Assembly (NCBI GenBank): GCA_964558645.1
Contig: CAZLEV010000002.1
Location: 288,001 to 352,000 of the forward strand
Origin: an uncultured archaeon
GTDB taxonomy: Archaea > Asgardarchaeota > Thorarchaeia > Thorarchaeales > Thorarchaeaceae
Length of the DNA: 64,000 bases
Reading direction: 5' to 3'
Below, in pieces: positions 5,913 through 25,245 of the stretch (within the stretch, counting starts at the first letter, position 1; each line of letters begins with the position of its first letter). The position numbers and the translations under genes were made by a program. The notes beneath the pieces are model-generated. The model was not told where the DNA came from and ran no database searches. It saw only the letters and a program-made list of their open reading frames with translations.

Positions 5913-6041
5913 TGTACTTCGCCAAGTGTTCAGCAGGCGTACTTGGTCTTAAGGCTCACGCTCTTACTAGGAATCCACTTTCTCATGTCTGCATATCATG
6001 ACTTAAGAGGTAGGCGGCCACACTCAACCAAGGTTTGCCAC

Positions 6042-6590: not shown

Positions 6591-6669
6591 ACTTAAATTG
6601 GCTCCTCCATCGCTTCTGCCCTGTCTGGAGTCCTCATAAGCGACTCCGTCTACCATTTAGGTGAATACC

Positions 6670-7080
6670 ATGTCCACTCGAGGAGAACCGATGTATCGCG
6701 GGCATAAACTAGAGGACCTAGCCAAGATGAGTATGGACGAACTCATCGAACTGCTCCCCGCGCGCAGGCGCCGCACCCTCAAGCGCGGCCTGCCCCCACG
6801 ACAGAAGAAACTCCTCAGAAAACTCCGCGATGCGCGCAAGGCCACTCGTAAGGGCAAAGACGTGGTTGTTCGGACGCACTGCCGTGATATGGTCATCCTG
6901 CCTGAGATGGTGGATCTGACCATCGCCATTCACGACGGGCACGAGTTCAAACGCGTCAAGATAATTCCTCAAATGATTGGACATGTATTGGGAGAGTTCT
7001 CCCCAACTGGCAGAGAAGTAAGGCATGGTAGCCCTGGAATCGGCGCTACAAAGAGTTCTGCGTACGTGCCGCTGAAATAA
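6670..7080 (+). CDS. rps19p: 30S ribosomal protein uS19, archaeal type
   Basis: YRG..L..M..ARRRR.L.RG, VRTHCRDMVILPEMV, IGHVLGEFSPT and HGSPGIGATKSS.YVPLK; SD-like AGGTGA at 6659-6664 precedes ATG 6670. Confidence 0.97.
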   Translation: MSTRGEPMYRGHKLEDLAKMSMDELIELLPARRRRTLKRGLPPRQKKLLRKLRDARKATRKGKDVVVRTHCRDMVILPEMVDLTIAIHDGHEFKRVKIIPQMIGHVLGEFSPTGREVRHGSPGIGATKSSAYVPLK

Positions 7081-7114
7081 AGCGGAAAGACGAACTTTTA
7101 GTAACTTCAAGGGG

Positions 7115-7162
7115 TTATGAGTACTTCTTTCTCTTGCCTTGTTCTCAGTATGGACCTTGTCC
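7115..7162 (-). pseudogene. Decayed 3' tip of a homologue of the 10408-11061 gene
   Basis: gtacttctttctcttgccttgttctcagtatggaccttgtcc aligns with gtccttctttctcttcttcttccgctcagtgcgtgccttatcc at about 20792-20834. Confidence 0.6.
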
Positions 7163-7419
7163 AGTTGATAGGTTCCGATTTCCGCAGACCACTTCTCCGA
7201 TTCCCTCGGTTTCCTCCTAGGTGTCTACAACCACGAGACAGTCTGGATTGTGTGAAGGATGATGCCTTTGCCGTTCACTTCTTGACGAAACGGAATATCA
7301 GTGAGTGTCCGGTTACGCTTATAACCAATTGACCCTAACTTCTCCTGTTGGTGGGATGTTTCTATGGTAAAGGAACTATCCAAGGCCGCGAGGTCAGGAA
7401 TTGAGGAGGTAACAAGAAC

Positions 7420-7698
7420 TTGCCATTTCCAGCTTTAGAAGACCTACTTGACGAACCGCCGGAGAGCTTCCCCAGTAGATCCAGTGTCAAGATTCTTCGT
7501 GGAAAGACCTTGACTAGAATCGGCAAGTGGCACAAAGCAGCTGTTCTCGTCGATTCGGGTGGGAAGAAACAGCTTAGACTATATGGTTGGCGGAAAAGCA
7601 AGGAAGGTATATGGAAGGTCATTCAGAAATTCAATGTGTCCAGAGGTTATGCAGCAAGAGTTGGGGCCATACTGGATGCATTTGCCATAGGTGAGTGA
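7420..7698 (+). CDS. Small basic protein, possibly PC4-like nucleic-acid binding
   Basis: LRLYGWRK..G.WKV..KFNV pattern; SD-like GGAGGT upstream; overlaps the next ORF (GTGA). Confidence 0.55.
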   Translation: MPFPALEDLLDEPPESFPSRSSVKILRGKTLTRIGKWHKAAVLVDSGGKKQLRLYGWRKSKEGIWKVIQKFNVSRGYAARVGAILDAFAIGE

Positions 7699-8885
7699 CA
7701 AGGATGACTTCGGATTCCGAACAGGAATCTTATCGTATTCTTCCAGACTGCGAATACTGGCTCGAGATGCAGATAAACCCCGAAACAGTCTTGAAGAAGC
7801 TCAATTCCGAAAGGGAATTCAAAACAATCGGCAAATTCAAAGCATCAGACTTGTCCGAGTTCTTTGAAGCTAACATTGACGGATCCACGTCCCATATTTC
7901 CAAGAATGATCTAGTTGCTCTGATTATAAGAAGACATTCTGATCTTAAGAACACCCTTCTCGTCCTAGCCCAGTACTCGCGTCATGTGAGCAAGAAGGCC
8001 TTACAAGAATACTGTATGAAGAAGGACTTGAACGGGGGAAGTAGAACTACAGTCCAGTTGGCACTGCTTCTTTTCAACAATGCACCGGAAGTTCTTCGAG
8101 AAGCACGCGTTGCCAGTATGGGCTATAGAATTCGAACCTGTTACAATTTCATAATCCCTAACAACCTGGTGATTAGGAGAATCAATGAAGAGAGCGCAAC
8201 TGATGAGCTATCGGAGCTAATAGAGAACGAGCTGTCAACCGCTGAGAAGAGAGTCAAGTTGGTAGAACACCATATTGATGACACACGAGAAACTTATCGG
8301 CTCTTCGTGAAATACGAAAATCATGAGGAAAAGGTTGTTGAATGGGATAGCGCGTTTTGGGTGAAGCCCATAGATTGGATTGTTATTGACTATGATACAG
8401 ATTCCGGATTTCTCGACATTCGTTGTAGAAACGGGGCAAGAGCTAGGAACATGGTTTTGCTTTTGTCGCGAATCACAACAGGGCACGACGATGCATTTGA
8501 AACACAAGCAGTTTATGACTGGAGCGATTCTTTAGAGATACATGAAGTGGAATTAGAGTCAGACAAGTTTGAAGTCTTGGATCACGATATCAGAAGAATC
8601 AGTGTAGAAAACGCGCCTCTATCGAATCGTCCTAGTTTCGTTATCCGGGGAACCAAACTCAAGAGGGCGCTAGATGAGCTAGCGGAGAATCATGACTTTA
8701 ACCTCCTATCGGGAGCAGATATCAGATCATTGGATATTAAAATCAAGTTCGAATATGATGGCGTGACTGACGAAACGACTATCCGTTTGAACAGAGATAC
8801 TGAGAAGCTTGTAATGACAAAAGAAACAAATGAACAAGCGAAAAGGCATCTGATCGCTTACATTGGGAAACTCCTTACAGGTTGA
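7695..8885 (+). CDS. Hypothetical protein, putative defence operon gene 2
   Basis: 396-aa ORF with lower GC; translationally coupled on both sides. Confidence 0.7.
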   Translation: MTRMTSDSEQESYRILPDCEYWLEMQINPETVLKKLNSEREFKTIGKFKASDLSEFFEANIDGSTSHISKNDLVALIIRRHSDLKNTLLVLAQYSRHVSKKALQEYCMKKDLNGGSRTTVQLALLLFNNAPEVLREARVASMGYRIRTCYNFIIPNNLVIRRINEESATDELSELIENELSTAEKRVKLVEHHIDDTRETYRLFVKYENHEEKVVEWDSAFWVKPIDWIVIDYDTDSGFLDIRCRNGARARNMVLLLSRITTGHDDAFETQAVYDWSDSLEIHEVELESDKFEVLDHDIRRISVENAPLSNRPSFVIRGTKLKRALDELAENHDFNLLSGADIRSLDIKIKFEYDGVTDETTIRLNRDTEKLVMTKETNEQAKRHLIAYIGKLLTG

Positions 8886-10268
8886 ATGACTTTGCAACTC
8901 AGTCTGCCACAAATGAGTCTGGTTTCAGATGTGTTCTCGGCGCATAATGCAATTGGATACTCCGAGATTGTTTCTAAAGGACATGAAATCACCGTAATCA
9001 GAGAACTCGTAGAAGCCGGCATACTTGAAAAGCGTCTGAAACCAGAGATTCCTTGTCCTGCTTGCAATCGTACGATGGGGATTAGACTTGATATCGGATA
9101 TACATGCACAAGCTGTGGTCGAGTAATCCTACTCGAAGATGACCATCTTCTTGAGCACTCCACCTATCGAGCATCTGTACAACATCTTGTCAAAACCATG
9201 AGGAATCACCTAGTCAACGAAGGATTCAATCTCATCTCAACCGAAGAGAGCAGAATTGCAGGTGTGTATGCAATCGGTCGAATTCAGAGCGGTTCCGAGG
9301 GTGAACTTGATTTGGTGCTGCTTGCAAAACCTCTGAGTACAACGACCTTGTCCGCACTGCTAGGTGATGCAATTGCACATAGTACGAATACAGCGGTGTT
9401 TATCCCATCCAGTGAATCAGGTTTCGAACGCTCTCAAAGCGAGCTCATAGCCTTTCCCAAATTGCTCACAATGGATTTGCCCCTATTTGGTCAAGAGCCC
9501 ACAATGAGAAATCTGGAACGCTTCCTAAGCCACTCGGCCTTTCTCTCATCAATTATTGCATCCATTCGGGAGGTCACTGGGAGTGATCAGAGCCTGTTTA
9601 TGACACGGGATGAGGTTCAGTTCCTTGAAAATGCAAGAAGACTCTCCCAGACTGGGAGAAAGAGATTCGAACCGATAGCATTGCGACTGCTTCAACCTCT
9701 TGGGATAACCTCCCGGTTTAAGGCGGGAGGTTATGGCCCGGATGGTATGCTGTACCTCCCTGATGAGTTCTACATTGTTGATGCAAAATCAACCGAGTCC
9801 CAGTTTGAATTTAGAGTTGAGGAACGTGACAAAATTCATCGTTACATCCGTGCAATCGAAGACAATTGCGATTTCCTAGGAGAATATGGCTTCTCAGGAG
9901 AAATCATTGTCACCCCTTCCTTGAAGGAGCCGCACTCTGATACGTTGGATAAGGTAGAGGAGTACTTCTCAAAGAATCCGATTAATGGTCGCTTGGTCAT
10001 CATCTCCTCCGACGCGTTAATAGATTTGCATCGTAGCATTTTCGCTGACTTGGAGTATTTTCATCGGCTCCAACCAAAGCATCATGTCAAAGACCTTCTA
10101 AGTGGCCGACTGTCAGTTGATCCAACGGGTGATTCCCCCCAATTCCTGCATGTTGTCTACGTTGGCGAGGAAACAATGCAGAGATTCTATAGTTTGGTAT
10201 TAGATTCGCCGGCACTGAGCATGCGTAGCGTTTCATATCTCGACAGTTGGATTGAGAGTGTCTACTGA
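8886..10268 (+). CDS. Zn-ribbon plus PD-(D/E)XK restriction-endonuclease-fold protein
   Basis: CPAC...CTSC near the N-terminus; FE...GPDG..(x)..IVDAKS catalytic motif. Confidence 0.75.
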   Translation: MTLQLSLPQMSLVSDVFSAHNAIGYSEIVSKGHEITVIRELVEAGILEKRLKPEIPCPACNRTMGIRLDIGYTCTSCGRVILLEDDHLLEHSTYRASVQHLVKTMRNHLVNEGFNLISTEESRIAGVYAIGRIQSGSEGELDLVLLAKPLSTTTLSALLGDAIAHSTNTAVFIPSSESGFERSQSELIAFPKLLTMDLPLFGQEPTMRNLERFLSHSAFLSSIIASIREVTGSDQSLFMTRDEVQFLENARRLSQTGRKRFEPIALRLLQPLGITSRFKAGGYGPDGMLYLPDEFYIVDAKSTESQFEFRVEERDKIHRYIRAIEDNCDFLGEYGFSGEIIVTPSLKEPHSDTLDKVEEYFSKNPINGRLVIISSDALIDLHRSIFADLEYFHRLQPKHHVKDLLSGRLSVDPTGDSPQFLHVVYVGEETMQRFYSLVLDSPALSMRSVSYLDSWIESVY

Positions 10269-10349
10269 CGGGTACTTCGATTTCAGCGTCCTCTTCCACA
10301 CGAGTTCCCAATGCCATAACAGTGGGCTCGCTTCGACAGCAAGAAGGGG

Positions 10350-10380
10350 GTTAGATGGCCCGGAATCGTCACGCCTAAGG
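10350..10380 (+). repeat. Strongly decayed rps19 3'-end remnant
   Basis: gttaga-tgg-cccggaatcg (V R..P G I) shares gcccggaatcg with the 23358 copy and sits just past the stop of the convergent gene, as in the other scars. Confidence 0.5.
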
Positions 10381-10407
10381 AGGACCATCTCTCAACGAGA
10401 CCATCTG

Positions 10408-11061
10408 TCAATTGCCCTTCTTCCTTCTCTTCTCACTGCGAGCTCGGTCAGCCGCCTCAATCTCCTCCCACTCCTTCATCTTCTCACGAACGCGTTGGGA
10501 TTGTCGTTCCATTGCGGCCTTGAACTCGGGTGTCTTTGATGCCTCATCCACGATTTCGTAGTACGCGATAGTTTCACCATCAGTGAATTCGTAGGAAGTC
10601 GTGACTACATCATATATATGGATGTGCTCTGTGCCCTCCGTGAAACCCTTCTCTTCTAACAGCTCCACTGCTTTATCCACTCTCATCCTCCCGAGATCTT
10701 CGGGGCCCGTGTTGCTGCGCAGGATTCTTATCAATGCCTTCTCCCGCTCCTTGAGGTTCTGGTAGTGTTCTGATCCCTCATCAGAGAGAATCTTAAGATG
10801 CCACACCGGCCTTCCGGGGTCAATATCAAACTTCGTCGCGTCTTCCGGAGAAACATGGTCCAGGGTCTTGTCAATGATCCAATCGTCCAGCAGTTTGATG
10901 ATCACTCTGCGAATGTCATCCTCTGTACAGTCCATGCCCTCATCCTCCGAGGACCCGAGTAGCAGGGCCACAGCCTTGTCCAAGGGAATTCCGTATTCCT
11001 CAGGATGAGATTCAATGAGGGCCATGAGGTTTTCCTTCACAATTAGAATATCACAGTTCAT
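10408..11061 (-). CDS. Probable tandem winged-helix protein with a charged C-terminal helix (element gene 3)
   Basis: Internal repeat (IPLDKAVALL / MRVDKAVELL); its C-terminus KTPEFKAAMERQSQRVREKMKEWEEIEAADRARSEKRRKK recurs as remnants; ATGA overlap with the upstream gene. Confidence 0.7.
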   Translation of the reverse strand: MNCDILIVKENLMALIESHPEEYGIPLDKAVALLLGSSEDEGMDCTEDDIRRVIIKLLDDWIIDKTLDHVSPEDATKFDIDPGRPVWHLKILSDEGSEHYQNLKEREKALIRILRSNTGPEDLGRMRVDKAVELLEEKGFTEGTEHIHIYDVVTTSYEFTDGETIAYYEIVDEASKTPEFKAAMERQSQRVREKMKEWEEIEAADRARSEKRRKKGN

Positions 11062-14000
11062 GATTCCTCACCCACAAGTTCGTCATAATAGCATGGGTAC
11101 CCTGTGCTTTTTAGCTCCTCTGCTATAGGTTTGCCTAGATCTGGTCTGCTTCTAACCCACTTCTTCACCTTCTCCAACTTCGTCACATCATTAGGGGGAC
11201 ACATGAGTACAAATCGCATAAGTTCCGTGATTCGAGAGGTACTGTACATCCATTCACTTGACACTCGGCCAGAGCCCTCATAGAATGTGATTTTTACCAG
11301 ATAGGGCTTCACTGCAACACCTATTGAGGCAAGTGCATCTATCTCATCCTGAAACAACTGCGGCTTATTCGTTTCAACTATCTCACGGAACTCGTTGCAT
11401 GTTGCAGACGTTTCAGCAACTTCCTTTAACTTTCCGCCCGTCATTTCCCACCTAGGCCCAAACCGCTCATCATCTTCTCGCGTGCCATTTTCTTTGATTA
11501 CTCCAATATGCTCGTCTTTGATACAGGATTCAAAATCGTACTCCTGTTTTGAGGGATCTGCAAGGGTAGTGGCACGAGTAACAGAAAACTTGGGTCTCTT
11601 TCCCAATTCATCTAGAGAAAATGAGCCATCTTCACAGAAGGTTTCCCTGAAGTAGCATGATTTGATCTTAACAGATCCATATCGGATGAACCTCGGAAGA
11701 CGAGTCGCCTGCATTCCCTTGTCACCAGGCGGAAATCCTCGTGAAACCAACAACCGCCCCAGCACACTGGTGAATCGTACCTGTCGCACGCCATTCTCCC
11801 TGATCGCGACATGGTAGTAGACATCGCCCAAGGGGCGGACACTCGCGATAACGATGTCCACGCGGTCAGGGTCGCACTCGGTATAGACGAAACCATTCTG
11901 TTTGAGTTCAACATGTCCATCCGACAGTCCAGTCCCGAACAACTTCGCGAAAAGAAGGTCCACAGCATATGGGTCCTTTGGGAACCGCGGATTCTCGATA
12001 CCACCGTGCTTGTGCCGACCGATCCGCCTGAGGCGCGACTCGACGGTGTCAGGACCAACGCCCAGCGTATCGAGGATGAGGGCAAGGGTGGCCCCCTTGA
12101 GATACGGGGCACGGGAATTGAGGTCAGCGTTCTGTGAAGACTTGAACACTGTTCGATTATAGTCAGTGATTTGCCCAATGAGCTTGCTGAAGTACCTGTC
12201 ACCTACCAGTCCAAGACGGTCGCGGGCAAGAGTAATGAGCGTCCGCTTATCCGAGCGCCTTCGGAACCTGAATATCTCCTCACGATACAGATGCATCCAG
12301 TTCTGCTCACGGGTGTCGTGCATGCGAAAATACAGGCGGTCGTTCACCACACCCAGCCTGAGCTGGCGCTCCGGGTCATCAGCAAGCCTAAGGCGAACAT
12401 TGAGCTCCTGCTCGATGGCCTCCCGCTCCCGCAGGGTGGCCTTGGCGATGCGCCGCAGCCAATTTGGCCCACCATAGCTGATATTCCGCATGTCAGCCCA
12501 CAACACTCGCCGTGGATGCTCCGCTGAGAGATAGACCTCCGCGATTGCCCGTGAGAGTTCATCCACCGTGGGTTTCTTGACTTCCCTGAGATGGCGTAGA
12601 TGCGCATAGACCACCTCAGGCGGTATGCGATGCTCGAAGGCCTCGGGGCTCAGGTTGCCCTCGTATTCGGCCCGTGAACTCTCCGCAGACCCGAGCATCT
12701 TGAAGATCCTTGGGGTCTTCTTCTCTGGAACCCAATACCGTACTCTTGCCGCCGTGGTTTTGAGGATCTTGGCGATCTCAACATAGGTCAGTTTCTCAAT
12801 GTCGCGACGGCTCTCCATCTCCTTGAGCCCGATGTATGCAAGGGCCGACCTGTTCAGGGTCTTGAAGTTGCGCTGGTCGCGGTAGAAGTTGTGGCGTCCC
12901 AGCATGACCTCGTACTCCAGACGGCAGGACGGAATCCATGATGAGTCCTCCCTCCGCTCGATGTCCGAAAAGCCATCCTGCTTAATGCCCACCCCGATGA
13001 GGGACGGTGGTGCACCCCTGAGCCAGTCGATAACCCGCTCCGAGGAAACGCCGAGGCGGTCAGCGAGCCTTTCCACCGACACTCTACGATAACGCTCCTC
13101 CCCGTCCACCATGACAAAGGGGATCTCGTGGTTGTGGGCGGCACGCATGACCTCGCCCCAGGCCTGAAACTCCGCGCACCAGAAGTCCACCGTGAAGCTC
13201 TGGGATATCTCCTGGTCGTCCTTTACCATGGTGATGATTCGCTCCATGCTACCCTCGTCCTCATGGAGAGTGCCGTATCGAAGCATCCGTGACCAGCGTC
13301 GCTCAATCTCTAGACTCCAGAGATTCCGGATGAGCTCGGGGGCGTTGTCATCATCAGCCAGTTCCTCGATGCGCTTGCGGTCGATACCCAGCTGTCGGGC
13401 CAGTTCGTCAAGATCGGGCTCGTTATCCGCCTCCTCGAGGGCCTTCTTGACACGGACATAGTCCTCCGCGTCCTTGAGTCGCTCCTCCAGCTCCTCCTCG
13501 TCCAGTGACTCCCTGTAAGCTGTGACATACCTTTTCAGGCTCTGGTTGCTCTTCAGGGACTCCTTGGCCTCCTCCCTGAGGCGCTCCTTCTCCTCCTCGG
13601 GGAGCTTCTCGAACTCCTCTTTCAGCAGGCGCCTCAGGCGTTCCTCGCGGGTCTCAGGGAACATTGAAGGGCGCAGAGGGCCACCATCAGGAAAGATACT
13701 GGAAAGCGTCGTATGAAGTCTCCCCCGTTCATCGGGAGTCTCTTCCTCTTGCACTGACTCCTCTCTCTCCCGGACATCCTCAGTGGGGGATCCGGTGTTC
13801 TCTTCCGAGATATCTTCAGAGGCGTTTGTGTCAGGCTCAACGTCAGATTCCTCTGACTGCTCAACATCCACCCTCGAGGGGCTCTCGGACTCGACCTCCT
13901 CAGAGAGCTCCACGTCCTCCGTGGTGTCTGATTCTTCCGTTTCAGACTCATCTTCTCCCTCCTCGTCGGTGGTCTCAACATCGGGCGGCTCTATCTCTTC

Positions 14001-14786
14001 GTCAGTCTCCTCCTTGACCCTCACATCCTCAGAGACATCGGGTTCACCGCTGTCCCCCATGGCCTCATGCCCGTGTTCGTCAAGAACCTCCTGGCTCGTG
14101 TCCGCAGCTGCGGTCTTGTCAACCTCTGACTCCTCAGCCGCCACCTCAGCGTCAGCGTTCTCCTCTGGTTCCTCCTCAGTCTCGATCTCTACGGTGACCG
14201 TGACCTGTTGATCCCCCGCGTTCTCCTCCACGCGGACCTCCCCTGATTCTGAGGAGGACATATCCGAAGAAGCAGACTCCTCCTCGGGTTCTTCCTCGAC
14301 CTGTTCTTTGTCTTCTTCTAACTCAAATTTTTCCCTCAGCTCAGACTGGTACTCCTCAGAGAGCCTCTCCGAAGCCTGTCGTATCTCGGCAGAGGTCTCC
14401 TCACTGGAGAGTCCGTCGCCAGTCCCGGGATTGTCCTTCTCTGGATTCCGCCTCTCCTCATGCTCCGCCTCGTTCTGGCGCCTGACCTCGTCCACCATCT
14501 CCCTGATACTCTGGTCAAACTCAGCACGCTCGCGCCGAGTCCGCTCTCTCGCCTCCTCCACTGTCTCGCGTATCTTGCGGTCGAACTCGGACTCCTCACT
14601 CGCCTTGGGAGGTTCATCTCCCTCAGTCCTCGCCTCTGTCCCCCCATCTGCATTTCGTTCGGCTGCCGTTCTTCTCCGGGCCTCGTCTACCAGCTCACGC
14701 ACACGACGCTCGAACTCCTCATCGTTCTCTATACCCTCTCTACTCTTTCGTGACCTCTTCTCCTCCCCGCCCTCACCGGCCATCAC
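11058..14786 (-). CDS. Large protein: acidic low-complexity N-terminus, three HTH motifs, double LAGLIDADG-type endonuclease (element gene 2)
   Basis: HTH-like LDELARQLGIDRKRI, VERLADRLGVSSERVIDW and YVEIAKILKTTAARVRYW; LAGLIDADG-like FAKLFGTGLSDGHV and YFRETFCEDGSF about 100 aa apart, separated by a GFPPGDK...LP.FI linker. Confidence 0.75.
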   Translation of the reverse strand: MMAGEGGEEKRSRKSREGIENDEEFERRVRELVDEARRRTAAERNADGGTEARTEGDEPPKASEESEFDRKIRETVEEARERTRRERAEFDQSIREMVDEVRRQNEAEHEERRNPEKDNPGTGDGLSSEETSAEIRQASERLSEEYQSELREKFELEEDKEQVEEEPEEESASSDMSSSESGEVRVEENAGDQQVTVTVEIETEEEPEENADAEVAAEESEVDKTAAADTSQEVLDEHGHEAMGDSGEPDVSEDVRVKEETDEEIEPPDVETTDEEGEDESETEESDTTEDVELSEEVESESPSRVDVEQSEESDVEPDTNASEDISEENTGSPTEDVREREESVQEEETPDERGRLHTTLSSIFPDGGPLRPSMFPETREERLRRLLKEEFEKLPEEEKERLREEAKESLKSNQSLKRYVTAYRESLDEEELEERLKDAEDYVRVKKALEEADNEPDLDELARQLGIDRKRIEELADDDNAPELIRNLWSLEIERRWSRMLRYGTLHEDEGSMERIITMVKDDQEISQSFTVDFWCAEFQAWGEVMRAAHNHEIPFVMVDGEERYRRVSVERLADRLGVSSERVIDWLRGAPPSLIGVGIKQDGFSDIERREDSSWIPSCRLEYEVMLGRHNFYRDQRNFKTLNRSALAYIGLKEMESRRDIEKLTYVEIAKILKTTAARVRYWVPEKKTPRIFKMLGSAESSRAEYEGNLSPEAFEHRIPPEVVYAHLRHLREVKKPTVDELSRAIAEVYLSAEHPRRVLWADMRNISYGGPNWLRRIAKATLREREAIEQELNVRLRLADDPERQLRLGVVNDRLYFRMHDTREQNWMHLYREEIFRFRRRSDKRTLITLARDRLGLVGDRYFSKLIGQITDYNRTVFKSSQNADLNSRAPYLKGATLALILDTLGVGPDTVESRLRRIGRHKHGGIENPRFPKDPYAVDLLFAKLFGTGLSDGHVELKQNGFVYTECDPDRVDIVIASVRPLGDVYYHVAIRENGVRQVRFTSVLGRLLVSRGFPPGDKGMQATRLPRFIRYGSVKIKSCYFRETFCEDGSFSLDELGKRPKFSVTRATTLADPSKQEYDFESCIKDEHIGVIKENGTREDDERFGPRWEMTGGKLKEVAETSATCNEFREIVETNKPQLFQDEIDALASIGVAVKPYLVKITFYEGSGRVSSEWMYSTSRITELMRFVLMCPPNDVTKLEKVKKWVRSRPDLGKPIAEELKSTGYPCYYDELVGEES

Positions 14787-17845: not shown

Positions 17846-18091
17846 GGGGCAGTACTTCCTCCTTTCAGTGGTGAGATGTTGCGCCGGACCGCAACCTACC
17901 GAGTACAGTGATTGTCACCAAGTATCATAGGTGTTGTGTGATTGCTGTCTACAGCCTCATAGCCAAGATAGGGAGGCATCGGAAGTTATGAGAGTCTAGT
18001 GGTAACTAATACGTTGATACAGGCTTTTATGAAGCATATGAGTCATGGATAGCGGTCACTGATGTGGTCCATTGGACATTTGTATACAATG

Positions 18092-18133
18092 CCAGGGACG
18101 ACTAAGAGCCCTGACGCCGTTCCACTCAAGTAG
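18092..18133 (+). repeat. rps19 3'-end remnant
   Basis: Translates PGTTKSPDAVPLK*, compared with native PGIGATKSSAYVPLK*. Confidence 0.75.
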
Positions 18134-18141
18134 GAGGAATT

Positions 18142-18305
18142 CTATGCGAAATGGGTCATTATGCGCCATTTTTTTTTCTTCTTCGTGCTTACAAGACGAG
18201 CCCTATCTTCCGCCTCGAGCTCGGCATCCCGCGTCATTTTCTCCATCAATCGTTGGGACTGTCGCTCCATCTCAGCCTTCCACTCAGGGGTCTTTGAGAA
18301 CTCGT
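18142..18305 (-). pseudogene. 3' fragment of a homologue of the 10408-11061 gene
   Basis: EFSKTPEWKAEMERQSQRLMEKM...EAEDRARL..KKKKK aligns with the C-terminus of the intact gene. Confidence 0.85.
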
Positions 18306-18466
18306 TCACAATTCCACAACAGGGTAACATCTCATCATTGACAGTATTAGACGAGTTTCAATAACACCCTCGATATGGATGTGTTTCCGTTATATAGGAC
18401 GTGACTTTCCCATCGCTCAGAAAGAATAAATCGTAGTCTGTACATTGACTACACGGTGGTATTGGA

Positions 18467-19429
18467 ATGAAGAAGGGCTTCATTGTATTATATGCAATTC
18501 TCATTTTAGTAGTTTTCATGCAAGCGCAGGTAGATGCAACAGCCCAAGGGGACAGTGAGTTTGAAACGAAAGACTTCCTGCTTGATGATGGCACACTGAC
18601 TTATCGAGGCTGGATGCAGACCGAACAACCTAGCAGCTCCAATCCGTACGGAGTAGAAGGGTTGTTGAATGTGAGTATAACCGCGTACGCCAGTGTGAGA
18701 TCGCTCTCGGATGAAATTGTGAGGTTTGAGGTTTCGATGTACTTCAATGCACAAGAGTGCTATCAGAAGCGTCAGGGCACGGAGTACACGCCAGACAGCG
18801 ACGGAATACGATACTATGATAGTGAACTGGACTTCATTGGCACAGACGATATGCAGTATGAGTATGAGGGGAACGTGAACAAGAAGGACGGCAGGTACTC
18901 TCTCTTCCACGCGCCGCAGGGAGCATCATACTACTCGGTTGCTGCCTACTTCGACAGTGTCTTCGTCTATGAATGGATTGCAACGCTACCAGTGCCATTC
19001 CCGGAAGCAGGAGAACAGAACGGGTTCTTCGTCCATAATATCTCAGAATGGTCCATTGGAACAGATTACCATAAGGACTACACCGTATCCGGGGAGTCGA
19101 CCTATGGTTCCTATGAAACATGGGTCTTGGAGCCGAAGAGTAACCTAGCAGGCATGGATGTTTTTGAGGACAGGATAGAGTGGGAGAAAACCAGCGGCCT
19201 GTTTCTCCAACAAGACTCAAGATTCGTGGAAACCAATGAGTTCGATTTTGAGTACCATCTCAGAGCCACTGAGTATGAAGATATGATTCTGATACCAGCT
19301 CCAGCCGTTGTTGACCCCTTGATGACAGGTATTGGAGGATTTGCGGTGGTGGGAATCATTGCCATAGTTATTCTCTACAAAAGGCAGAAGGACAGCCATA
19401 GCCAAGTCGTGCTACCTCCCGGATTCTGA
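18467..19429 (+). CDS. Secreted protein with a C-terminal membrane anchor
   Basis: Signal peptide, acidic/aromatic ectodomain, TM helix followed by KRQK. Confidence 0.8.
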   Translation: MKKGFIVLYAILILVVFMQAQVDATAQGDSEFETKDFLLDDGTLTYRGWMQTEQPSSSNPYGVEGLLNVSITAYASVRSLSDEIVRFEVSMYFNAQECYQKRQGTEYTPDSDGIRYYDSELDFIGTDDMQYEYEGNVNKKDGRYSLFHAPQGASYYSVAAYFDSVFVYEWIATLPVPFPEAGEQNGFFVHNISEWSIGTDYHKDYTVSGESTYGSYETWVLEPKSNLAGMDVFEDRIEWEKTSGLFLQQDSRFVETNEFDFEYHLRATEYEDMILIPAPAVVDPLMTGIGGFAVVGIIAIVILYKRQKDSHSQVVLPPGF

Positions 19430-19545
19430 CCGCCTTATTCTGTATCGCGATGAAAACGAGGCGAATTCCTATATCAGAGAATTAGTTATATGCTAGTAGA
19501 AGGAAGGCAGGTTTGCTTGCGTCGCCATAGGATAGGGAGTTTCGT

Positions 19546-20541
19546 ATGAGAAAGCTAGCTGTAATCATATTTCTAGTCACTGTAATGCTACCTACTTCCT
19601 GTTATGCCGCAGGATCCTTTCATGTGGCAGACACGAGATTCGACTTTGACGAGAGCATATCTCCTGGAAGCTGGTATTGGATTCGCTCATCTAGTGTAGA
19701 ACCCGGAATGGGATTCTACGGAAGCGTGAAGGTCGACTCTGGCCAGGACCTAGACTTCTTCGTCTGTGATGTTGATGGCTATAACGATGTTCAGAACGGA
19801 AAGAGTACAACCCCTCTCCATCACTGGGGGGAAGATATCACGGGCACCACCGATTTCGAGTTCATTGCTCCTGATAATGGTGATCTGTATTGGTGCTTCA
19901 GTAATCACGACAGCGTCTTCACAACTATTCATATTCAGGGATACCTGAGTCGCGACCTGACAGCACCCGAACTTGACATAATAAGCCCCAATCAAGGTCA
20001 GACTGTGGATGGAACGGTGGTACTTGAAGCGACTGCCGAGGACAATCAGTTTGAAGTGGAACTGATGCGCGTCTATGTTGATGACAGCCTGAAGAAGACT
20101 GTCAGTTCTGACTCAATCACATACTACTGGGACTCGAAAGAGGTTGACGACGGCGCCCATACCGTCAAGTTCTACGTCAGTGACAACGTGAACAATGAGC
20201 GTGAGATCATCCGAACGGTATACGTGGACAATATTATCGAAGTAACTTCTACGACGGGGACGAGTTCAACGACCTCCACGACAGATTCAGGTTCAACACC
20301 AACTCAAGATCCAGGTGGCCAAGATCCAGCGAATACCTCCCCGATGCTTCTCTCCATGCCTCTCATCACTGGGGCATTCATCGTGTTAGGGATTGCTGGC
20401 GTTGGTTATGCGGTAAGTAGGAAGGAGAGCGCAACGTCGGCTCCGGTCTCTGAAGCCAAGGTTTTCGTCATCTGTCCGTACTGTGGTGCAAAAGTGGAAC
20501 AGGGAATCACGAAGTGCCATAAGTGCGGTGCAGAAATCTAG
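19546..20541 (+). CDS. Type I membrane protein: GOLD-like domain, Ig-like domain, S/T linker, TM helix, cytoplasmic Zn ribbon
   Basis: Signal peptide; V.SGQDLDFFV...FEFIAP..G..YWCFSN; ISP..GQTV.G...WDS..V.DG.HT; CPYC...CHKC. Confidence 0.75.
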   Translation: MRKLAVIIFLVTVMLPTSCYAAGSFHVADTRFDFDESISPGSWYWIRSSSVEPGMGFYGSVKVDSGQDLDFFVCDVDGYNDVQNGKSTTPLHHWGEDITGTTDFEFIAPDNGDLYWCFSNHDSVFTTIHIQGYLSRDLTAPELDIISPNQGQTVDGTVVLEATAEDNQFEVELMRVYVDDSLKKTVSSDSITYYWDSKEVDDGAHTVKFYVSDNVNNEREIIRTVYVDNIIEVTSTTGTSSTTSTTDSGSTPTQDPGGQDPANTSPMLLSMPLITGAFIVLGIAGVGYAVSRKESATSAPVSEAKVFVICPYCGAKVEQGITKCHKCGAEI

Positions 20542-20789
20542 ACCTCAAGAGTGTGTAGGGTGGGCGGCCGCCCAGAATCTGTCGCTCACTTACCCCCTCC
20601 CCCTTGATACTTTGCGACCTTCTCGGACCGGCTGCTAATTGAGTACAATATGCTAGGTTTTCTGAATGCCAAGATGAAAACTTACAGACTACCGGTGGGA
20701 ACGTAGTGATTCAAGAGGGCCAGAAGGGCAGCGACTTAGGTTTCCATTTCGCCTGAAAGACTGGTCTTCTGCCATGGACTTCCCTTCGT

Positions 20790-20923
20790 ATGTCCTTCTT
20801 TCTCTTCTTCTTCCGCTCAGTGCGTGCCTTATCCGCTGCATCGATCTCCTCCCACTCCTTCATCTTCTCAAGTACACGTTCAGACTGGCGTTCGGCTTCT
20901 CGCTTGTACTCCTCGGTCTTCAT
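20790..20923 (-). pseudogene. 3' fragment of a homologue of the 10408-11061 gene
   Basis: KTEEYKREAERQSERVLEKMKEWEEIDAADKARTERKKKRKK. Confidence 0.88.
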
Positions 20924-20926
20924 GCA

Positions 20927-21433
20927 CTATGGCTCTTCCGAACCGGATGAAGACCGATAATCGCTTCTGGCGTGCCACCTATGGGCAACGAAGTAGGTCA
21001 GTATCTGAAGAACAGGAAGCGGGAATGCATCCATACCAGCCCAACCATCCAGGCGGTATGAAAAGGCTACAAGATAGAACAACGGAATGATAAGAGTTCC
21101 AAGCAGTACGCCACGGATGGTCTTGCCCTTGCCCCAGGCACGACAAGACACCATCCATAGCAGGAAGACGCCCAGGGTCATTGCCATTGCGCTCCAAATG
21201 GTGTGCACGATTGTTGGCATCAGCAAAGAAAGACTTGAGAATGGGCCAGATAGGTAGCTTCCATAGGAGTAGCTGATTGTCCAGACTGTTGCTACTAATA
21301 TGATACTGGTCTGATGGTTGTCCACCAAAGATCTGAATTCAATACTCAATGTATGGGGAGCTAGAAGAAATATCAGCACCAAGATGAGGATCTGACGAGT
21401 TGAAATGCTGGAGCTTGATTCCATTTTTCCCAT
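20927..21433 (-). CDS. Multi-pass membrane protein
   Basis: Hydrophobic helices from MGKMESS (ATG 21433); the longer ORF call overlaps the neighbouring gene. Confidence 0.65.
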   Translation of the reverse strand: MGKMESSSSISTRQILILVLIFLLAPHTLSIEFRSLVDNHQTSIILVATVWTISYSYGSYLSGPFSSLSLLMPTIVHTIWSAMAMTLGVFLLWMVSCRAWGKGKTIRGVLLGTLIIPLFYLVAFSYRLDGWAGMDAFPLPVLQILTYFVAHRWHARSDYRSSSGSEEP

Positions 21434-21641
21434 CTCAATTGACCACCCTGCAATATCGTTGGAACAGAGAACTAGGAATGATCTCTCCCGAAGAACAATT
21501 GCTTTGTTTCTTCTTAAACTATCCTGCAAGTTTCTTATTGCGGGAGGGCAGGAGGCGATGGCCGAAATCTTCGACAAATCGAAGATGAGGATGTAAAGGG
21601 GTGCATTTCTAATAGCCTGACATGTTTGACCCAATCGCCCA

Positions 21642-22094
21642 CTACGAATCACGGGTTCTCCGGACAAGAAGTATGTATATCTCGATGCAGGAGGTGACAA
21701 CCCCGAACAACCCCAGCACAACCACCACAGCTGCGAGATCCATCGGGACATAGGGCATCATGACCAACACAAAGAGCAAGAGAAAGGTGGCGTAGAAGGA
21801 GAGGTATAGAACGAAACGCGGCACGAGTCTGTTGCCCAGGAGAAGGTAGAACCTGAGTTCGCCCAGAGGAACAAGTCGTACAACCGTGTATCGGCCCATG
21901 TCATCCCCAGCCACAAGGCCAAGGGACTCCAGCTTCTTCAGATGATACGATGCGAGGCTGACGCTGGACAGCTTCGTCCCGTCCTTCACCTCGCGACGAG
22001 TCCTGCCCTCGTTCTGTATGATTAGCCAGCGATAGACTTGGAGGGTCGTCCTATGGAGGTCAGGTTCTTTGTCGTCCGCCGTCATCCATGGCAT
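21642..22094 (-). CDS. Membrane-anchored winged-helix (ArsR-like) regulator
   Basis: REV.....LSSVSLASYHLKKLESLGLV followed by two TM helices. Confidence 0.8.
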   Translation of the reverse strand: MPWMTADDKEPDLHRTTLQVYRWLIIQNEGRTRREVKDGTKLSSVSLASYHLKKLESLGLVAGDDMGRYTVVRLVPLGELRFYLLLGNRLVPRFVLYLSFYATFLLLFVLVMMPYVPMDLAAVVVVLGLFGVVTSCIEIYILLVRRTRDS

Positions 22095-22111
22095 CCCCAG
22101 ATTCCTGTGAG

Positions 22112-23239
22112 CTACTCCACTTCCATTTTCCTAACGGATCTCCTTAAAGCGTATTCTGTGGAGAGAGCCGCTACAACGGCAACTGTCATACTTGTCACCG
22201 TAAAGAGAATCCAGAGCGTTTCGCATGGACGCTCTAAGACTGCCAGGTCTAGGCTCTCACGGTACGGCACAGTCTGCACGACCTCGCCCGTGCGCGCATC
22301 GATGAGCACATCACATCGTGATACATCATCAGAAGTCACCACATACCAGACAAGGCGCATATGGTGTGGTGTGGTCTCTGCCTCAATCGTGTCGCTTACA
22401 GTGAGATTGTACATGACAACCCGTTTCCCAGTGACCTGCTTCGCTATGTCATACGCACTGAACTCATTTATCGTTGGACCCAGTGTGAAAACGCCCAAAT
22501 CGCGCCAGAGGTAATGGAATCCTGAGACCCGCCCGGTCAGGATATCCACTTCGATAAGGATGCCATCCCCACTGTACCCCAATGAGAAAGAAGGAGGGGA
22601 TTTGATGGAGATGCCATTAGAAACGTGTTCGAAAGCGAGGTGGTAGTTGCCGGATGTATGATGCTGAATCACTCCACAATAGCGTGCGTCCTTCGGCAAC
22701 GTGATATTGTTCAGATTCAAGAATGCCATTGCAGAGGCCTCTGCAGCAGCTGGTGCGATTGGCTGGGTCTGATTCTCTGAATCGCCTCTGAGAGCACCAC
22801 TTGTACACTCGAATCTGATCACCTCCCCCGAGACCGCGCTCACCTGAACCCATGTGCTCTTTTCATTGACGAAGAAGCGCCACGCCGGGATACGGGAGAC
22901 CTTACTGGCATATATGAGATGAAATGAGGACCAGTCCCATTCCGGGTAGTTCAACTGGAAGAACGATATTGCGTTCTTGCGGGCCTGGCTCTCGTTGACT
23001 AAGTAATACTCAGAACCGGGATCAACAACGATGAATGAACCGTTTTCGATGACCAGGTCCTGAAATCGGAACACACGTTCGGATTCATCGACATAACTCC
23101 AAAAGGCTGTTTCATCTATCGGTAGAGAGCCGATCTTTGTTTCTATTGGGAGGCTATTCGCTCCAACAAAGGCAATTGAACCCACAAGTATACCGAATAC
23201 GATGCAAGCCAGCCATGTCCCTCTCTGTATCATGAGCAA
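22112..23239 (-). CDS. Secreted or membrane-anchored PepSY-like repeat protein
   Basis: Signal peptide; repeated VSAVSGEV, VDILTGRV and IDARTGEV motifs; C-terminal TM helix. Confidence 0.7.
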   Translation of the reverse strand: MLMIQRGTWLACIVFGILVGSIAFVGANSLPIETKIGSLPIDETAFWSYVDESERVFRFQDLVIENGSFIVVDPGSEYYLVNESQARKNAISFFQLNYPEWDWSSFHLIYASKVSRIPAWRFFVNEKSTWVQVSAVSGEVIRFECTSGALRGDSENQTQPIAPAAAEASAMAFLNLNNITLPKDARYCGVIQHHTSGNYHLAFEHVSNGISIKSPPSFSLGYSGDGILIEVDILTGRVSGFHYLWRDLGVFTLGPTINEFSAYDIAKQVTGKRVVMYNLTVSDTIEAETTPHHMRLVWYVVTSDDVSRCDVLIDARTGEVVQTVPYRESLDLAVLERPCETLWILFTVTSMTVAVVAALSTEYALRRSVRKMEVE

Positions 23240-23331
23240 ACCCCTGTCAGACCAGTGGATGAGCTATACTTATTCAGGACTAGATGATAAGACTACTTTT
23301 TTTCCTCTGATTCAGAAGAGAAATGGCTATG

Positions 23332-23406
23332 ACCAATCGTGAAGTTCGACATGGATCGCCCGGAATCGGTGCCACGAAGAGCTCCGCGTACGTCCCGCTC
23401 AAGTAG
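23332..23406 (+). repeat. Intact-coding, synonymously recoded copy of the last 24 codons of rps19
   Basis: Translates TNREVRHGSPGIGATKSSAYVPLK*, compared with native TGREVRHGSPGIGATKSSAYVPLK*, with many synonymous changes. Confidence 0.95.
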
Positions 23407-23432
23407 AATCATCTTCGAGACGAGGGGCACCA

Positions 23433-23520
23433 TCAACCCTTTCTTCCTTTCTTTTTCTTCTGCTCAGCGCGAGCCCTGTCCTCTGCATCGATCTCCTACC
23501 ACTCCCTCATCTTCCCCTCT
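23433..23520 (-). pseudogene. 3' fragment of a homologue of the 10408-11061 gene
   Basis: GKMREW*EIDAEDRARAEQKKKKGRKG*, with one internal stop. Confidence 0.85.
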
Positions 23521-23694
23521 CACTCCCTATTCCAGTGTTGTATCAGAATCTACTGGCGCCCGAAATCGGCGTTATTCTGACACAACGATTTCCATGCCAG
23601 TTTTTGTTGGAGAAGAGTATAGAATACATATCACAAGCCTCTTATATTATTCCGAATTAACTATTGTTCACTACATACACTAATAGGTGATTTA

Positions 23695-24099
23695 TTGATG
23701 AACCGAACAAAATCCCTTCTGGCTATGGCTATGATCATGGTTTTCCTCAGCATAAGTTCTGTTGGAGCCGTGACCATCGAAGATACAGCAACTCTAACTG
23801 TAAAGCATCGAATTCCCGGTACTGCAGCAGGTCAAATCCTGCTTGGTGACCCATTCGCTCTGCCTTTTGAGCTACCAGTGGACGTCTACGTTAATGGTGA
23901 ACTTGCCTTTACTTTCTCTTTCAGAGACACGGTAGGTCCCATCGAATTGCCGGCAGGTACATACACCGTAGAGGTAAAACTCGCGGGTACTGACATCACA
24001 GTCATCGGTCCCCTTGACCTAACTCTTGAAGCTGGTGATGATGTCACCGCAGTAGCTGTCCTGCAAGGACGACGAGGTCCAACATTACTCCTTGAGTAG
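23695..24099 (+). CDS. Secreted DUF4397-like beta-sandwich protein
   Basis: Signal peptide; V.H.IPG...PVDVYVNG...LPAGTYTVEV..AG...L.AG...TAVA pattern. Confidence 0.7.
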   Translation: MMNRTKSLLAMAMIMVFLSISSVGAVTIEDTATLTVKHRIPGTAAGQILLGDPFALPFELPVDVYVNGELAFTFSFRDTVGPIELPAGTYTVEVKLAGTDITVIGPLDLTLEAGDDVTAVAVLQGRRGPTLLLE

Positions 24100-24141
24100 A
24101 TTTTTGTTTCCGATGTCAGAGAGGCTAATATTTTAGCCTCA

Positions 24142-24205
24142 TCCTTCTTTTCCTTTTTCTCTTCCAAGGAATTTCTCGAGTGTGCTTCTCGCCTGTACCC
24201 TCCCA
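24142..24205 (-). pseudogene. Internally deleted 3' fragment of a homologue of the 10408-11061 gene
   Basis: GYRREA...KKEKKD compared with EYKREA...KKKRKKD; gcttctcgcctgtac compared with gcttctcgcttgtac at about 20895. Confidence 0.55.
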
Positions 24206-24235
24206 ATAGTGACGACTTAGGCTCTATTGTCGGCT

Positions 24236-24400
24236 CAGGAGAGCGATGAAGAGAACATCTGATTGGACTCCGAGTCGGCCAAAGAGGAGCTGTTGACTCT
24301 GCTGGATTCCTTTCCGGATGAACGGCTGGAGGGCATCGAGGTTTCGCGAGAAGTCAATGATCCAGAGAACGAGGGGCCGAAACTCATCCTTCCGGTTTAG
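24236..24400 (+). pseudogene. C-terminal remnant of an SRAP (YedK/HMCES) family protein
   Basis: ESDEENI*LDSESAKEELLTLLDSFPDERLEGIEVSREVNDPENEGPKLILPV* matches the SRAP tail (WLD..LL.P.P...VS..VN.P.N.GP.LI.P); the Trp codon is TGA. Confidence 0.7.
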
Positions 24401-24496
24401 GATAGGCCTCATCATAGACAGTCTACCACTGAGCCAGACATCCGGAGCAGATGCATTCAAATCCACGAAAACCAGTGCATTCAGAGGTGTGAGGTA

Positions 24497-25081
24497 GTGA
24501 ATGCCGAGAGAGTATCATCCCAGAGTCGGCGATTTGTCCCTCCCGTAACAGGCCTATGGCCCGGCGAGAGGATAGTCTGGATCCGAAGACCAGGAACCGG
24601 GTTCTGGATAACGTGTTTTGGGATTTTGTTGGTATTAAGCATTATTTCGCTCCCCTTCACGATTGCGTCCGATCTTGGTCTCTCAGGAGCAGCTCCCCCG
24701 CTCTTTGCGGCAGTGGGTGGTATTGTCATCTTCATGTACTTCTATATCGTGAGAAGACGTACAAGATACTACCTGACAGATGAGCGGATAATCGAGGTCC
24801 GTGGCGACCGTATCGTCAAGGAGATGTCATTGGAGCGTTTCGCTGGAAGACCCATGGGCCAGTTTTTGGAGTCACGTGTCACACATACTGTCAACAACAT
24901 GCCGATGTATGACATTCGGATATATGACCCTCTCTCAGATGAGACCATGGTGCTCAAGAGCCTGGATGGCTTCTCTGCATCGTGGCTAGAGGAGATTGGG
25001 AAGATACGGGAGTGCCGTTATTGTGGTCTTGAAAATGTGGCCATAGCGGGCAAGTGTAAGAACTGTGGAGCGGTGCTGTAA
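24497..25081 (+). CDS. Membrane protein with a bacterial PH-like domain and C-terminal Zn ribbon
   Basis: GERIVW..RP, two TM helices, TRYYLTDERII, CRYC..CKNC. Confidence 0.7.
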   Translation: MNAERVSSQSRRFVPPVTGLWPGERIVWIRRPGTGFWITCFGILLVLSIISLPFTIASDLGLSGAAPPLFAAVGGIVIFMYFYIVRRRTRYYLTDERIIEVRGDRIVKEMSLERFAGRPMGQFLESRVTHTVNNMPMYDIRIYDPLSDETMVLKSLDGFSASWLEEIGKIRECRYCGLENVAIAGKCKNCGAVL

Positions 25082-25167
25082 CCTATACAGTACAAGGGGA
25101 GTATTTTCTCTAGGTCAACTGACGTGCTAGAAGGAGAATAGAGAAGAACGGGATAAAAGAGGCCTCC

Positions 25168-25245
25168 ACCAAAGCTACGTACGCGCCACTCAAGTAAGTC
25201 TGTATCCTGAGAAATAGTAGGATAGCACGCCTCTTTCTTACCTTG
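25168..25245 (+). repeat. rps19 3'-end remnant with a faint convergent-gene tip
   Basis: 25168-25197 translates TKATYAPLK*; followed by a pyrimidine tract (cctctttcttacctt) at about the same spacing as in the other scars. Confidence 0.65.

Follow-up and report, generated by a model that had tools for sequence, protein, structure and literature searches.

The 64,000-nucleotide (nt) stretch analysed here, referred to below as the window, belongs to an uncultured Asgard archaeon of the family Thorarchaeaceae, and the genome that carries it (G000) comprises 37 contigs and is 93% complete. One of its encoded proteins has a named database homologue that points to a Thorarchaeota-like Asgard archaeon. 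At positions 23332-23406 the window holds a fragment of rps19, the gene of the archaeal ribosomal protein uS19. This fragment is the displaced native 3' end of the gene, and the gene itself now ends in a foreign, synonymous tail that was brought with a 16.3-kb insert. The inserted block occupies 6993-23327, and its first 88 nt are the tail of the resident gene (tail A). uS19 is intact since the block starts with a gene end that is identical in protein and divergent in its synonymous codons, and the native tail (tail B) is left functionless at the far side. Tail B is the working tail of an empty-site allele that circulates beside the occupied allele in related populations. The three parts of the gene are listed first.

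6661-6992 (+): body of rps19; the tail is the inserted segment from 6993 on
6993..7080 (+): tail A, last ~29 codons and stop of the resident gene, leftmost part of the block, bounded by contig ends in metagenomes X3 and X2
23320..23406 (+): tail B, displaced native rps19 tail, intact at the protein level, of the same type as the tail of the empty-site alleles

Two synonymous endings of one gene

The resident rps19 (6661-7080, +) encodes 139 amino acids (aa) and matches the Pfam family Ribosomal_S19 (PF00203) with an E-value of 3e-29. Translation of 23332-23406 (+) gives TNREVRHGSPGIGATKSSAYVPLK, compared with TGREVRHGSPGIGATKSSAYVPLK at the end of the resident protein, so that 23 of 24 residues are equal; TNREVRHGSPGIGATKSSAYVPLK, followed by a stop, stands against TGREV... 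in the resident gene. An earlier sequence-only reading of the window had drawn attention to this match and to the differing codons beneath it (ggt agc cct/gga tcg ccc; agt tct/agc tcc; aaa taa/aag tag), all of which are present. The similarity extends ~12 nt beyond this to the left and begins near 23320, with the Glu codon of the 'EF' pair. The tblastn match of tail B has an E-value of 5e-13 within the window and 2e-8 against the whole genome, and is therefore not a chance match.

Tails A and B differ by 18 nt spread over 14 of their 22 shared codons, and every difference is synonymous (3, 1 and 14 at the first, second and third codon positions). In other words, the inserted and native C-termini are divergent in DNA (18/66 nt) and conserved in protein (0/22 residues). 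When 18 substitutions were placed at random 300,000 times, the protein was never left unchanged. The differences include switches between the AGC and TCG serine codons and between the AGR and CGN arginine codons, and 18 differences over ~17 synonymous sites come near to saturation. This substitution pattern means that the two spellings diverged long ago, both under selection for the uS19 tail. A recent local duplication followed by drift is ruled out by this all-synonymous, near-saturated divergence. The sequence-only reading had likewise argued against a simple local duplication, and the same differences bear it out, together with the finding that the remnant is no closer to its own genus than to others.

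In detail, 63 nt of the resident tail share 60 identical positions with G002 and 55 with G001, two genomes of the same genus, and 46 with the remnant in its own genome. The remnant matches the rps19 tails of its own genus at 46-50 of 63 nt, which lies within the range for other genera (38-51/63), and its best match among the sampled genomes, at 51/63 nt, belongs to another genus. With a best match of only 51/63 nt, in another genus, the genomes point to no donor or source lineage for the remnant; the empty allele comes from a metagenome only.

The fragment is not part of a second rps19 paralogue, a possibility that the earlier reading had set against its own account. A whole-genome search of G000 found one full copy of rps19 plus the tail B fragment and nothing further.

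The longest run identical in tails A and B is 8 nt, and the two are therefore a poor substrate for homology-driven integration. Over the 22 nt to the right of the junction they agree at only ~9 positions (counted by hand). At the actual breakpoint the identity is at most about 5 nt, with a possible microhomology GAGAG / AGAGA at the junction.

Empty and occupied alleles in metagenomes

Three public runs contain this DNA, namely the probable source run, X2 and X3 (two independent studies), and their contigs were compared over window positions 5800-24800. X3 is a freshwater sediment metagenome from a separate study, represented by Logan contigs and not by reads. In the source run, a single contig covers 5800-14073. 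In X2, one contig covers 22316-24800 with zero differences, and another stops at 6985. As the source-run contig and the X2 contig span them, both junctions of the block are real and no artefact of assembly. An X3 contig of the occupied form, which begins precisely at 6991, shares 99.9% identity with the window across 4.7 kb. The tail repeats break assemblies at the rps19 locus.

The empty site is seen in two bridging contigs of X3, whose joints lie at 6992>23328 (depth 45) and 6996>23350 (depth 19). They omit 16,335 and 16,353 nt of the window, with 9 and 27 other letters between the joined positions. The alleles reconstructed from them are in frame and encode a 139-aa uS19 with a B-type tail, ending ...GEFSMTNREVRHGSPG... 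or ...GELSITNKQVRHGSPG...; on the body side, these contigs hold 54 and 32 nt. The native C-terminus is thus of the type used by element-free relatives.

The sequence-only reading had also asked whether the resident gene is a mosaic. The breakpoint at the EF(S/A)xT codons is confirmed by the comparison of empty with occupied alleles and by every remnant found in other genera (see below), whereas the 5'/3' test in sequenced genomes is only weakly positive. Between G000 and G002, codons for the same residue are identical in 61/95 cases in the body versus 19/21 in the tail (Fisher p 0.02); between G000 and G001 the figures are 56/97 versus 13/21, which is not significant. The 5'/3' incongruence is therefore weak in sequenced genomes but clear at the population level, where one body type is joined either to tail A and the block or to tail B alone.

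Tail remnants across the family

Of 24 other genomes searched in the same family, 7 have extra matches to the rps19 tail, and G001, detected by blastn, brings the number with such remnants downstream of rps19 to 8/24. No such match occurs in the 16 genomes of other families that were searched. Three related metagenomic contigs carry remnants as well, up to three each. The starts of all remnants lie no more than about two codons from one and the same 'EF' pair, which precedes the stop by ~28 codons, and each remnant has a distinct synonymous spelling. In other genera, the cassettes between remnants are single cargo genes for beta-propeller, TPR/CN-hydrolase, NosD-like or papain-like surface proteins, and neither an integrase nor a nuclease was found in them. 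Synteny of the TPR gene upstream of rps19 is kept family-wide, and the downstream side is not syntenic. The aldolase, kinase and PFL-like genes at 25.5-29.6 kb of the window were not found in the compared other-genus loci.

A search of metagenome contigs returned no locus of the same genus, the best match having 82% aa identity. The loci L052 (852-4900), L053 and L054 from a JGI metagenome belong to another genus, with a uS19 that is 76% identical. In loci of the L052 type, up to three tail remnants lie 2.1, 2.8 and 4.0 kb after rps19 and bound single-gene cassettes encoding 590, 159 and 308 aa; L052 and L053 diverge past the second remnant.

Contents of the 16.3-kb block

The block is a composite array in which a three-gene module stands among cargo genes and decayed tail scars. 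Both cargo units are predicted to encode surface or membrane proteins. Beyond tail A, the block contains the following features; the last two lines give a geneX fragment and a possible scar to its right.

7146..10412 (+): cassette A, G+C content (GC) 43-47%, with genes for a 396-aa (7695-8885) and a 460-aa (8886-10268) protein
10355..10400 (+): rps19-tail scar, strongly decayed and internally deleted; an 11-nt match to the 'PGIG' codons and a tail-end-like stretch; weak
10408..11061 (-): geneX, 217 aa, fast-evolving, convergent with rps19, first gene of the module
11058..14786 (-): 1242-aa protein with an acidic N-terminus, a helix-turn-helix (HTH) region and a predicted C-terminal LAGLIDADG-fold module of 483 aa
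14783..17845 (-): 1020-aa protein with a HerA/FtsK-superfamily P-loop ATPase domain; 4-nt overlap with the nuclease gene
18095..18133 (+): decayed rps19-tail scar, GTTKSPDAVPLK*
18169..18303 (-): orphan geneX 3' fragment, about 45 codons (tblastn E 3e-14)
18467..20541 (+): cargo, 320-aa and 331-aa predicted surface proteins (Ig-like domain, zinc ribbon; Pfam)
20801..20920 (-): orphan geneX 3' fragment, about 40 codons (tblastn E 1.5e-15); an 85% DNA repeat with 23443-23514
20927..23239 (-): cargo, a 274-aa open reading frame (ORF) with no family match, a 150-aa winged-HTH-type protein and a 375-aa PepSY-domain protein (Pfam)
23445..23513 (-): orphan geneX 3' fragment, about 23 codons, one stop (tblastn E 1e-7)
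25160..25195 (+): possible older tail scar, TKATYAPLK*, not significant alone

Across 7081-23331, GC changes from 43-47% (7-10 kb) to 48-51% (10-12 kb), 58-60% (12-18 kb) and ~47-52% (18-23 kb), with 46-59% in the flanks outside the block. Cassette A is absent from the same-genus genome G002, whose alignment reaches 7146 and resumes at 10412, and its depth in X3 is below that of the three-gene module. The 396-aa protein has no family match, and the 460-aa protein has a weak Pfam match to the FokI cleavage domain (E 0.0016, under the cut-off). Cassette A is possibly a restriction-like or defence unit; PADLOC gave no match. In X3, a joint at 7079>12496 places the module after tail A without cassette A (depth about 50), and another at 18343>23457, between geneX fragments, has two cargo units missing or replaced (depth about 38).

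No recombinase was found among the nine largest ORFs of the block with Pfam, PHROGs, NCBIfam and PADLOC, a set that leaves out short overlapping and alternative-frame ORFs. Serine recombinases, Cas1 and DDE enzymes were likewise absent from those nine-ORF scans, in which no search was made by family name, and serine recombinases were not searched for genome-wide. As for tyrosine recombinases (PF00589), none was detected in the window; there is one locus in G000, on contig C1, and none in the array-bearing genomes G003, G007 and G022. Sequence search of the PDB together with Pfam, PHROGs, NCBIfam and PADLOC yielded no decisive annotation for the 1242-aa, 396-aa, 460-aa and geneX proteins.

The LAGLIDADG protein and its module

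With the last 483 residues of the 1242-aa protein, a family of 321 clusters is obtained at E <= 0.001. The Pfam sequence models gave no LAGLIDADG match for this protein. An AlphaFold2 model built from a 46-sequence alignment reached a pLDDT of 93 and a pTM of 0.90, and its best Foldseek matches in the PDB were I-Tsp061I, PI-SceI and I-DmoI (probability 1.0, target TM 0.6-0.68). I-OnuI variants matched at 0.96-1.0, and WhiA was also among the matches; proteins of the WhiA type have the LAGLIDADG fold and are non-catalytic DNA binders. On this structural evidence, the C-terminal module is confidently predicted to form a double alpha-beta-beta-alpha-beta-beta-alpha LAGLIDADG fold. The acids at the motif ends are kept, with the D of motif 1 ('..SDG') in 45/46 members and the D/E of motif 2 ('..EDG') in 46/46. 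Residues 1-350 form a roughly 350-residue region that is extremely acidic and internally repetitive. N-terminal extensions vary greatly in length within the family, whose proteins measure about 220 to 1600 aa.

In this archaeal family, the nuclease genes are multi-copy, with many truncated copies per genome and six matches in G000. Many broken copies per genome would be the pattern expected of selfish elements. In all three genomes of the genus, a member adjoins rps19; it is whole in G000, comes right after geneX in G002 and is reduced to a C-terminal fragment in G001. GeneX has no family match and two database relatives; its homologues stand directly downstream of rps19 in G002 (67% aa identity) and in G003, and it is decayed in G001. 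For the 1020-aa ATPase, the matches to HerA_C/DUF87, PADLOC HerA and NCBIfam CedD/HerA are weak and all under the cut-offs, and its hydrophobic N-terminal region, judged by eye, probably contains membrane segments. The order ATPase-nuclease-geneX recurs on an unrelated metagenome contig (L043). A second full module lies in G000 at C2:112640-120190, about 175 kb upstream of the window (geneX 196 aa, LAGLIDADG protein 1161 aa, ATPase 1180 aa), and further geneX paralogues at C2:91776-92306 and 98482-99204.

Age of the insertion and decay of the scars

Tail B and the adjacent geneX fragment (23445..23513) have an orthologue in G001, where a remnant with its flank, 1.9 kb downstream of rps19, is 82.6% identical over 155 nt to window positions 23343-23496. 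The tail of the G001 remnant reads CRDQHRWPRIGITKSSAYIPLK and differs from the G000 remnant at 6, 5 and 7 first, second and third codon positions, a pattern that speaks for neutral decay. All 11 first- and second-position changes between the two remnants fall on the G001 side. Zero such changes in a G000 copy that had been idle equally long would have a Poisson probability of about 3e-4 to 0.02 (means 8 to 4). Because the G001 orthologue decayed neutrally while the G000 copy keeps its protein, the codon pattern suggests that tail B had a function in the G000 lineage until not long ago, or was refreshed from empty alleles. The proposal of the sequence-only reading that the fragment had recently been a functional rps19 end thus holds, both on this decay and on the in-frame fusions of body and tail B in X3.

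Decay has gone much further in the internal scars (about 10.37, 18.1 and 20.8 kb) than in the distal tail B. Likewise, the distal remnant is intact and the inner ones are broken in the metagenomic contig L052 and in G022. Decayed tail scars, orphan geneX 3' ends and cassettes of differing GC indicate that the block is older than its present position. Most likely, a single event brought it in from a donor chromosome on which the array was already present.

How the block may have entered rps19

On balance, we favour an insertion that was initiated by a nuclease and resembles homing. In this process, the LAGLIDADG nuclease of the module formed by geneX, the nuclease and the HerA-like ATPase would cut the empty allele near the EF codons, so that the block enters rps19 at the Glu-Phe codons, some 28 codons short of the stop. 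Repair of the break with an occupied donor as template would then copy tail A and everything behind it, transferring the block as a whole. Tail A would have to differ from the target sequence, as the occupied allele would otherwise be cut again; the recoding would thus confer immunity. Such protection against re-cutting had been suggested by the sequence-only reading, and it is made more plausible by the fact that the block encodes a protein of predicted LAGLIDADG fold with conserved catalytic acids.

A more specific version of this hypothesis, which we offer tentatively, is an integrase-free element of Thorarchaeota-like Asgard archaea that consists of a giant LAGLIDADG nuclease, a membrane-associated HerA/FtsK-like ATPase and a small DNA-binding protein, and that homes into the last 28 codons of rps19 with a recoded, immune tail and an array of cargo genes. 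Homing would then be a route by which genomic islands form and are passed on en bloc at a ribosomal protein gene.

Several findings weigh against a nuclease-driven origin. The link between nuclease and rps19 is adjacency within one genus and could reflect vertical inheritance. G007 has no member of the nuclease family, and the arrays of G007, G016, G022 and L052-54 consist of cargo only, so that the nuclease would have to act in trans or to have been lost there. The nuclease gene lies on the opposite strand, 4 kb from the junction, and in G002 geneX stands in between. No duplicated gene end was found beside the second module of G000. Tail A is 87-95% identical among G000, G001 and G002, as opposed to 25-67% for the geneX proteins, and therefore does not simply co-diverge with the module. 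The module could also be defence cargo, since pairs of HerA and a nuclease are typical of defence systems. Finally, the bridging contigs of the empty alleles include only the 54 and 32 nt of body noted above.

Integration by an integrase, as in e14 or phage 21 at icd, is a serious though rather unlikely alternative. Circular elements would carry an attP with a substitute 3' end of rps19 and a short core at the EF codons, and repeated integrations would build up a tandem array; the integrase would have been lost, be located elsewhere or belong to an unrecognised family (geneX or another ORF). Just such an insert, flanked by directly repeated gene ends, is left behind by e14 (icd and icdC; PMC13626634). 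The left boundary is sharp and common to all genera, the arrays of small, single-gene, tail-bounded cassettes without a nuclease look like satellite or cargo-only elements mobilised in trans, and the junction has the possible 5-nt microhomology. However, no tyrosine recombinase was detected in the block, the only PF00589 locus of G000 lies elsewhere and the three array-bearing genomes have none. Moreover, an identical core of more than 8 nt is missing from the duplicated segment, and preservation is best in the remnant farthest from the gene, whereas integration step by step at the resident tail would produce the reverse order.

It is improbable, in our estimation, that no dedicated enzyme was involved and that versions of a hypervariable island are swapped by homologous recombination between rps19 bodies on one side and repeats of tails, terminators and geneX fragments on the other, after a single duplication long ago. 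The conservation of the left flank (TPR gene and rps19) throughout the family but not of the right side would fit such exchange, as would the two repeat-to-repeat variants of X3 (18343>23457, between geneX fragments, and 7079>12496) and the orthology of the tail remnant and its flank in G000 and G001. Yet it leaves unexplained why one pair of codons marks the start of independent remnants in several genera, why their synonymous spellings are distinct and how the first in-frame replacement of the tail came about; besides, the junction of body and tail B in the empty alleles is precise and in frame.

That the fragment is itself functional, as a translated mini-ORF of 27 codons (in-frame ATGs, MAMTNREV...) or as a selected cis element, is hardly credible: the frame is open with an upstream ATG, and several other remnants have a Met codon shortly before the conserved part, but this codon stands in place of the Ile of the usual '(A/S)ITN' motif, the remnants of G001, L052 and G007 contain stops and replacements, selection on a cis element would keep nucleotides and not protein alone, and the empty allele already accounts for the conservation.

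Related observations in the rest of the genome

A total of 4001 long ORFs of G000 were scanned for displaced downstream copies of their last 30 residues on the same strand, and two cases were judged clean, CRISPR-like repeats on C4 aside. One is rps19, and the second is a gene of 219 aa on C14 (8926-9585, -), located downstream of a 428-aa gene. Its last 22 codons are repeated 3.3 kb downstream (5514-5579) with three synonymous differences only, and 639-aa and 289-aa cargo genes but no nuclease lie between gene and repeat (C14:5514-9585).

The ribosomal cluster rpl2-rps19-rpl22 is split over three contigs, with rpl3-rpl4-rpl23-rpl2 at C10:20614-24434, rps19 alone behind the TPR gene on C2, and rpl22-rps3 and the rest at C4:223705-225081. 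Between rpl23 and rpl2 lies a LAGLIDADG-family fragment of 234 aa (C10:21545-22249), and no copy of the rpl23 tail was seen beside it. On C4, dense arrays of short repeats (...SQKEIPD / ...SQKRIPD, with variable spacers) that resemble CRISPR are found at about 51-55, 82-85 and 101-108 kb.

Significance

To our knowledge, foreign DNA enters archaeal chromosomes almost only as casposons or transposons or through tyrosine recombinases that act at tRNA genes. The recurrent entry point in this Asgard family is an essential ribosomal protein gene, present in a single copy and kept alive by a substitute ending. Displaced gene ends of this kind are known from mitochondria and from e14 at icd; what is new is their occurrence at an Asgard ribosomal protein gene, together with cargo arrays and a large LAGLIDADG family and with no integrase detected. 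We found no paper describing rps19-tail arrays, and a preprint on Tn7 in Asgard archaea does not mention ribosomal protein targets. If the LAGLIDADG protein is the driver, homing endonucleases could build and move multi-gene islands, which has so far been proposed only for Haloferax. Tails A and B offer a natural pair of 'immune' and 'sensitive' targets for testing the nuclease family of 321 clusters. In addition, rps19 is used as a phylogenetic marker, and its last 28 codons can be foreign.

Comparison with known systems

Hybrids of a gene and a mobile open reading frame (mORF) occur in fungal mitochondria; Paquin, Laforest and Lang reportedly described one in atp6 of Allomyces macrogynus in 1994, and further cases are atp9 of Rhizopus and cox2 of Mortierella. 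In Glomus sp., they affect atp6, atp9, cox2 and nad3 (Beaudet et al., 2013; PMC3630166). Their order is core, inserted C-terminal part, mORF and native C-terminal part; between inserted and native ends, identity is 64-81% in DNA and 94-100% in protein, and relatives without the element share the native end (PMC3630166). The window has the same layout, with the core at 6661-6992, the in-frame tail A at 6993-7080, a LAGLIDADG gene at 11058-14786 within the insert and the native tail at 23320-23406. As in the mitochondrial cases, the C-termini are far closer in protein than in DNA, and the native one agrees with that of element-free relatives. Unlike those cases, the present case concerns an archaeal chromosome and an essential ribosomal protein gene, and the insert is not one ORF but 16 kb with many cargo genes and older scars. 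The nuclease is a multidomain protein of 1242 aa, encoded on the opposite strand and accompanied by a HerA-like ATPase and a small protein, whereas in mORF hybrids the endonuclease ORF directly follows the inserted C-terminus or is fused to it in phase.

The integration of e14 at icd was reportedly described by Hill, Gray and Brody in 1989. Insertion of e14 or phage 21 into icd of Escherichia coli leaves a C-terminal pseudogene, icdC (PMC13626634). In both systems, the element carries a substitute 3' end, the housekeeping gene stays functional, the original end persists as a pseudogene on the far side, and the two ends differ mostly by synonymous changes. The difference is that e14 has its own tyrosine integrase and excises at an identical core, while here an integrase was not found and the identical core is at most 8 nt.

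Free-standing homing endonuclease genes offer a further comparison, the seg and mob genes of T-even phages being examples. In Haloferax, free-standing LAGLIDADG genes have been proposed to move whole glycosylation islands (PMC5867893). As in these systems, the nuclease gene of the window lies outside any intron or intein and beside conserved genes, and spread by break repair with co-conversion of the flanks is the proposed mechanism. Ordinary intron-less homing, however, replaces the flanks and leaves no duplicated gene end, whereas the displaced tail is kept here. Tandem island arrays at tRNA genes, such as the tycheposons of Prochlorococcus, are built by means of tyrosine or large serine recombinases. 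These arrays share with the rps19 locus the repeated use of a conserved gene 3' end, partial-gene repeats between cassettes and many cassettes without a mobility gene; at rps19, by contrast, the target codes for a protein, the repeats are constrained at the protein level and a recombinase was not seen. The nearest known counterparts of the rps19 locus are the endonuclease-borne replacement of C-termini in fungal mitochondrial genes and the insertion of e14 at icd.

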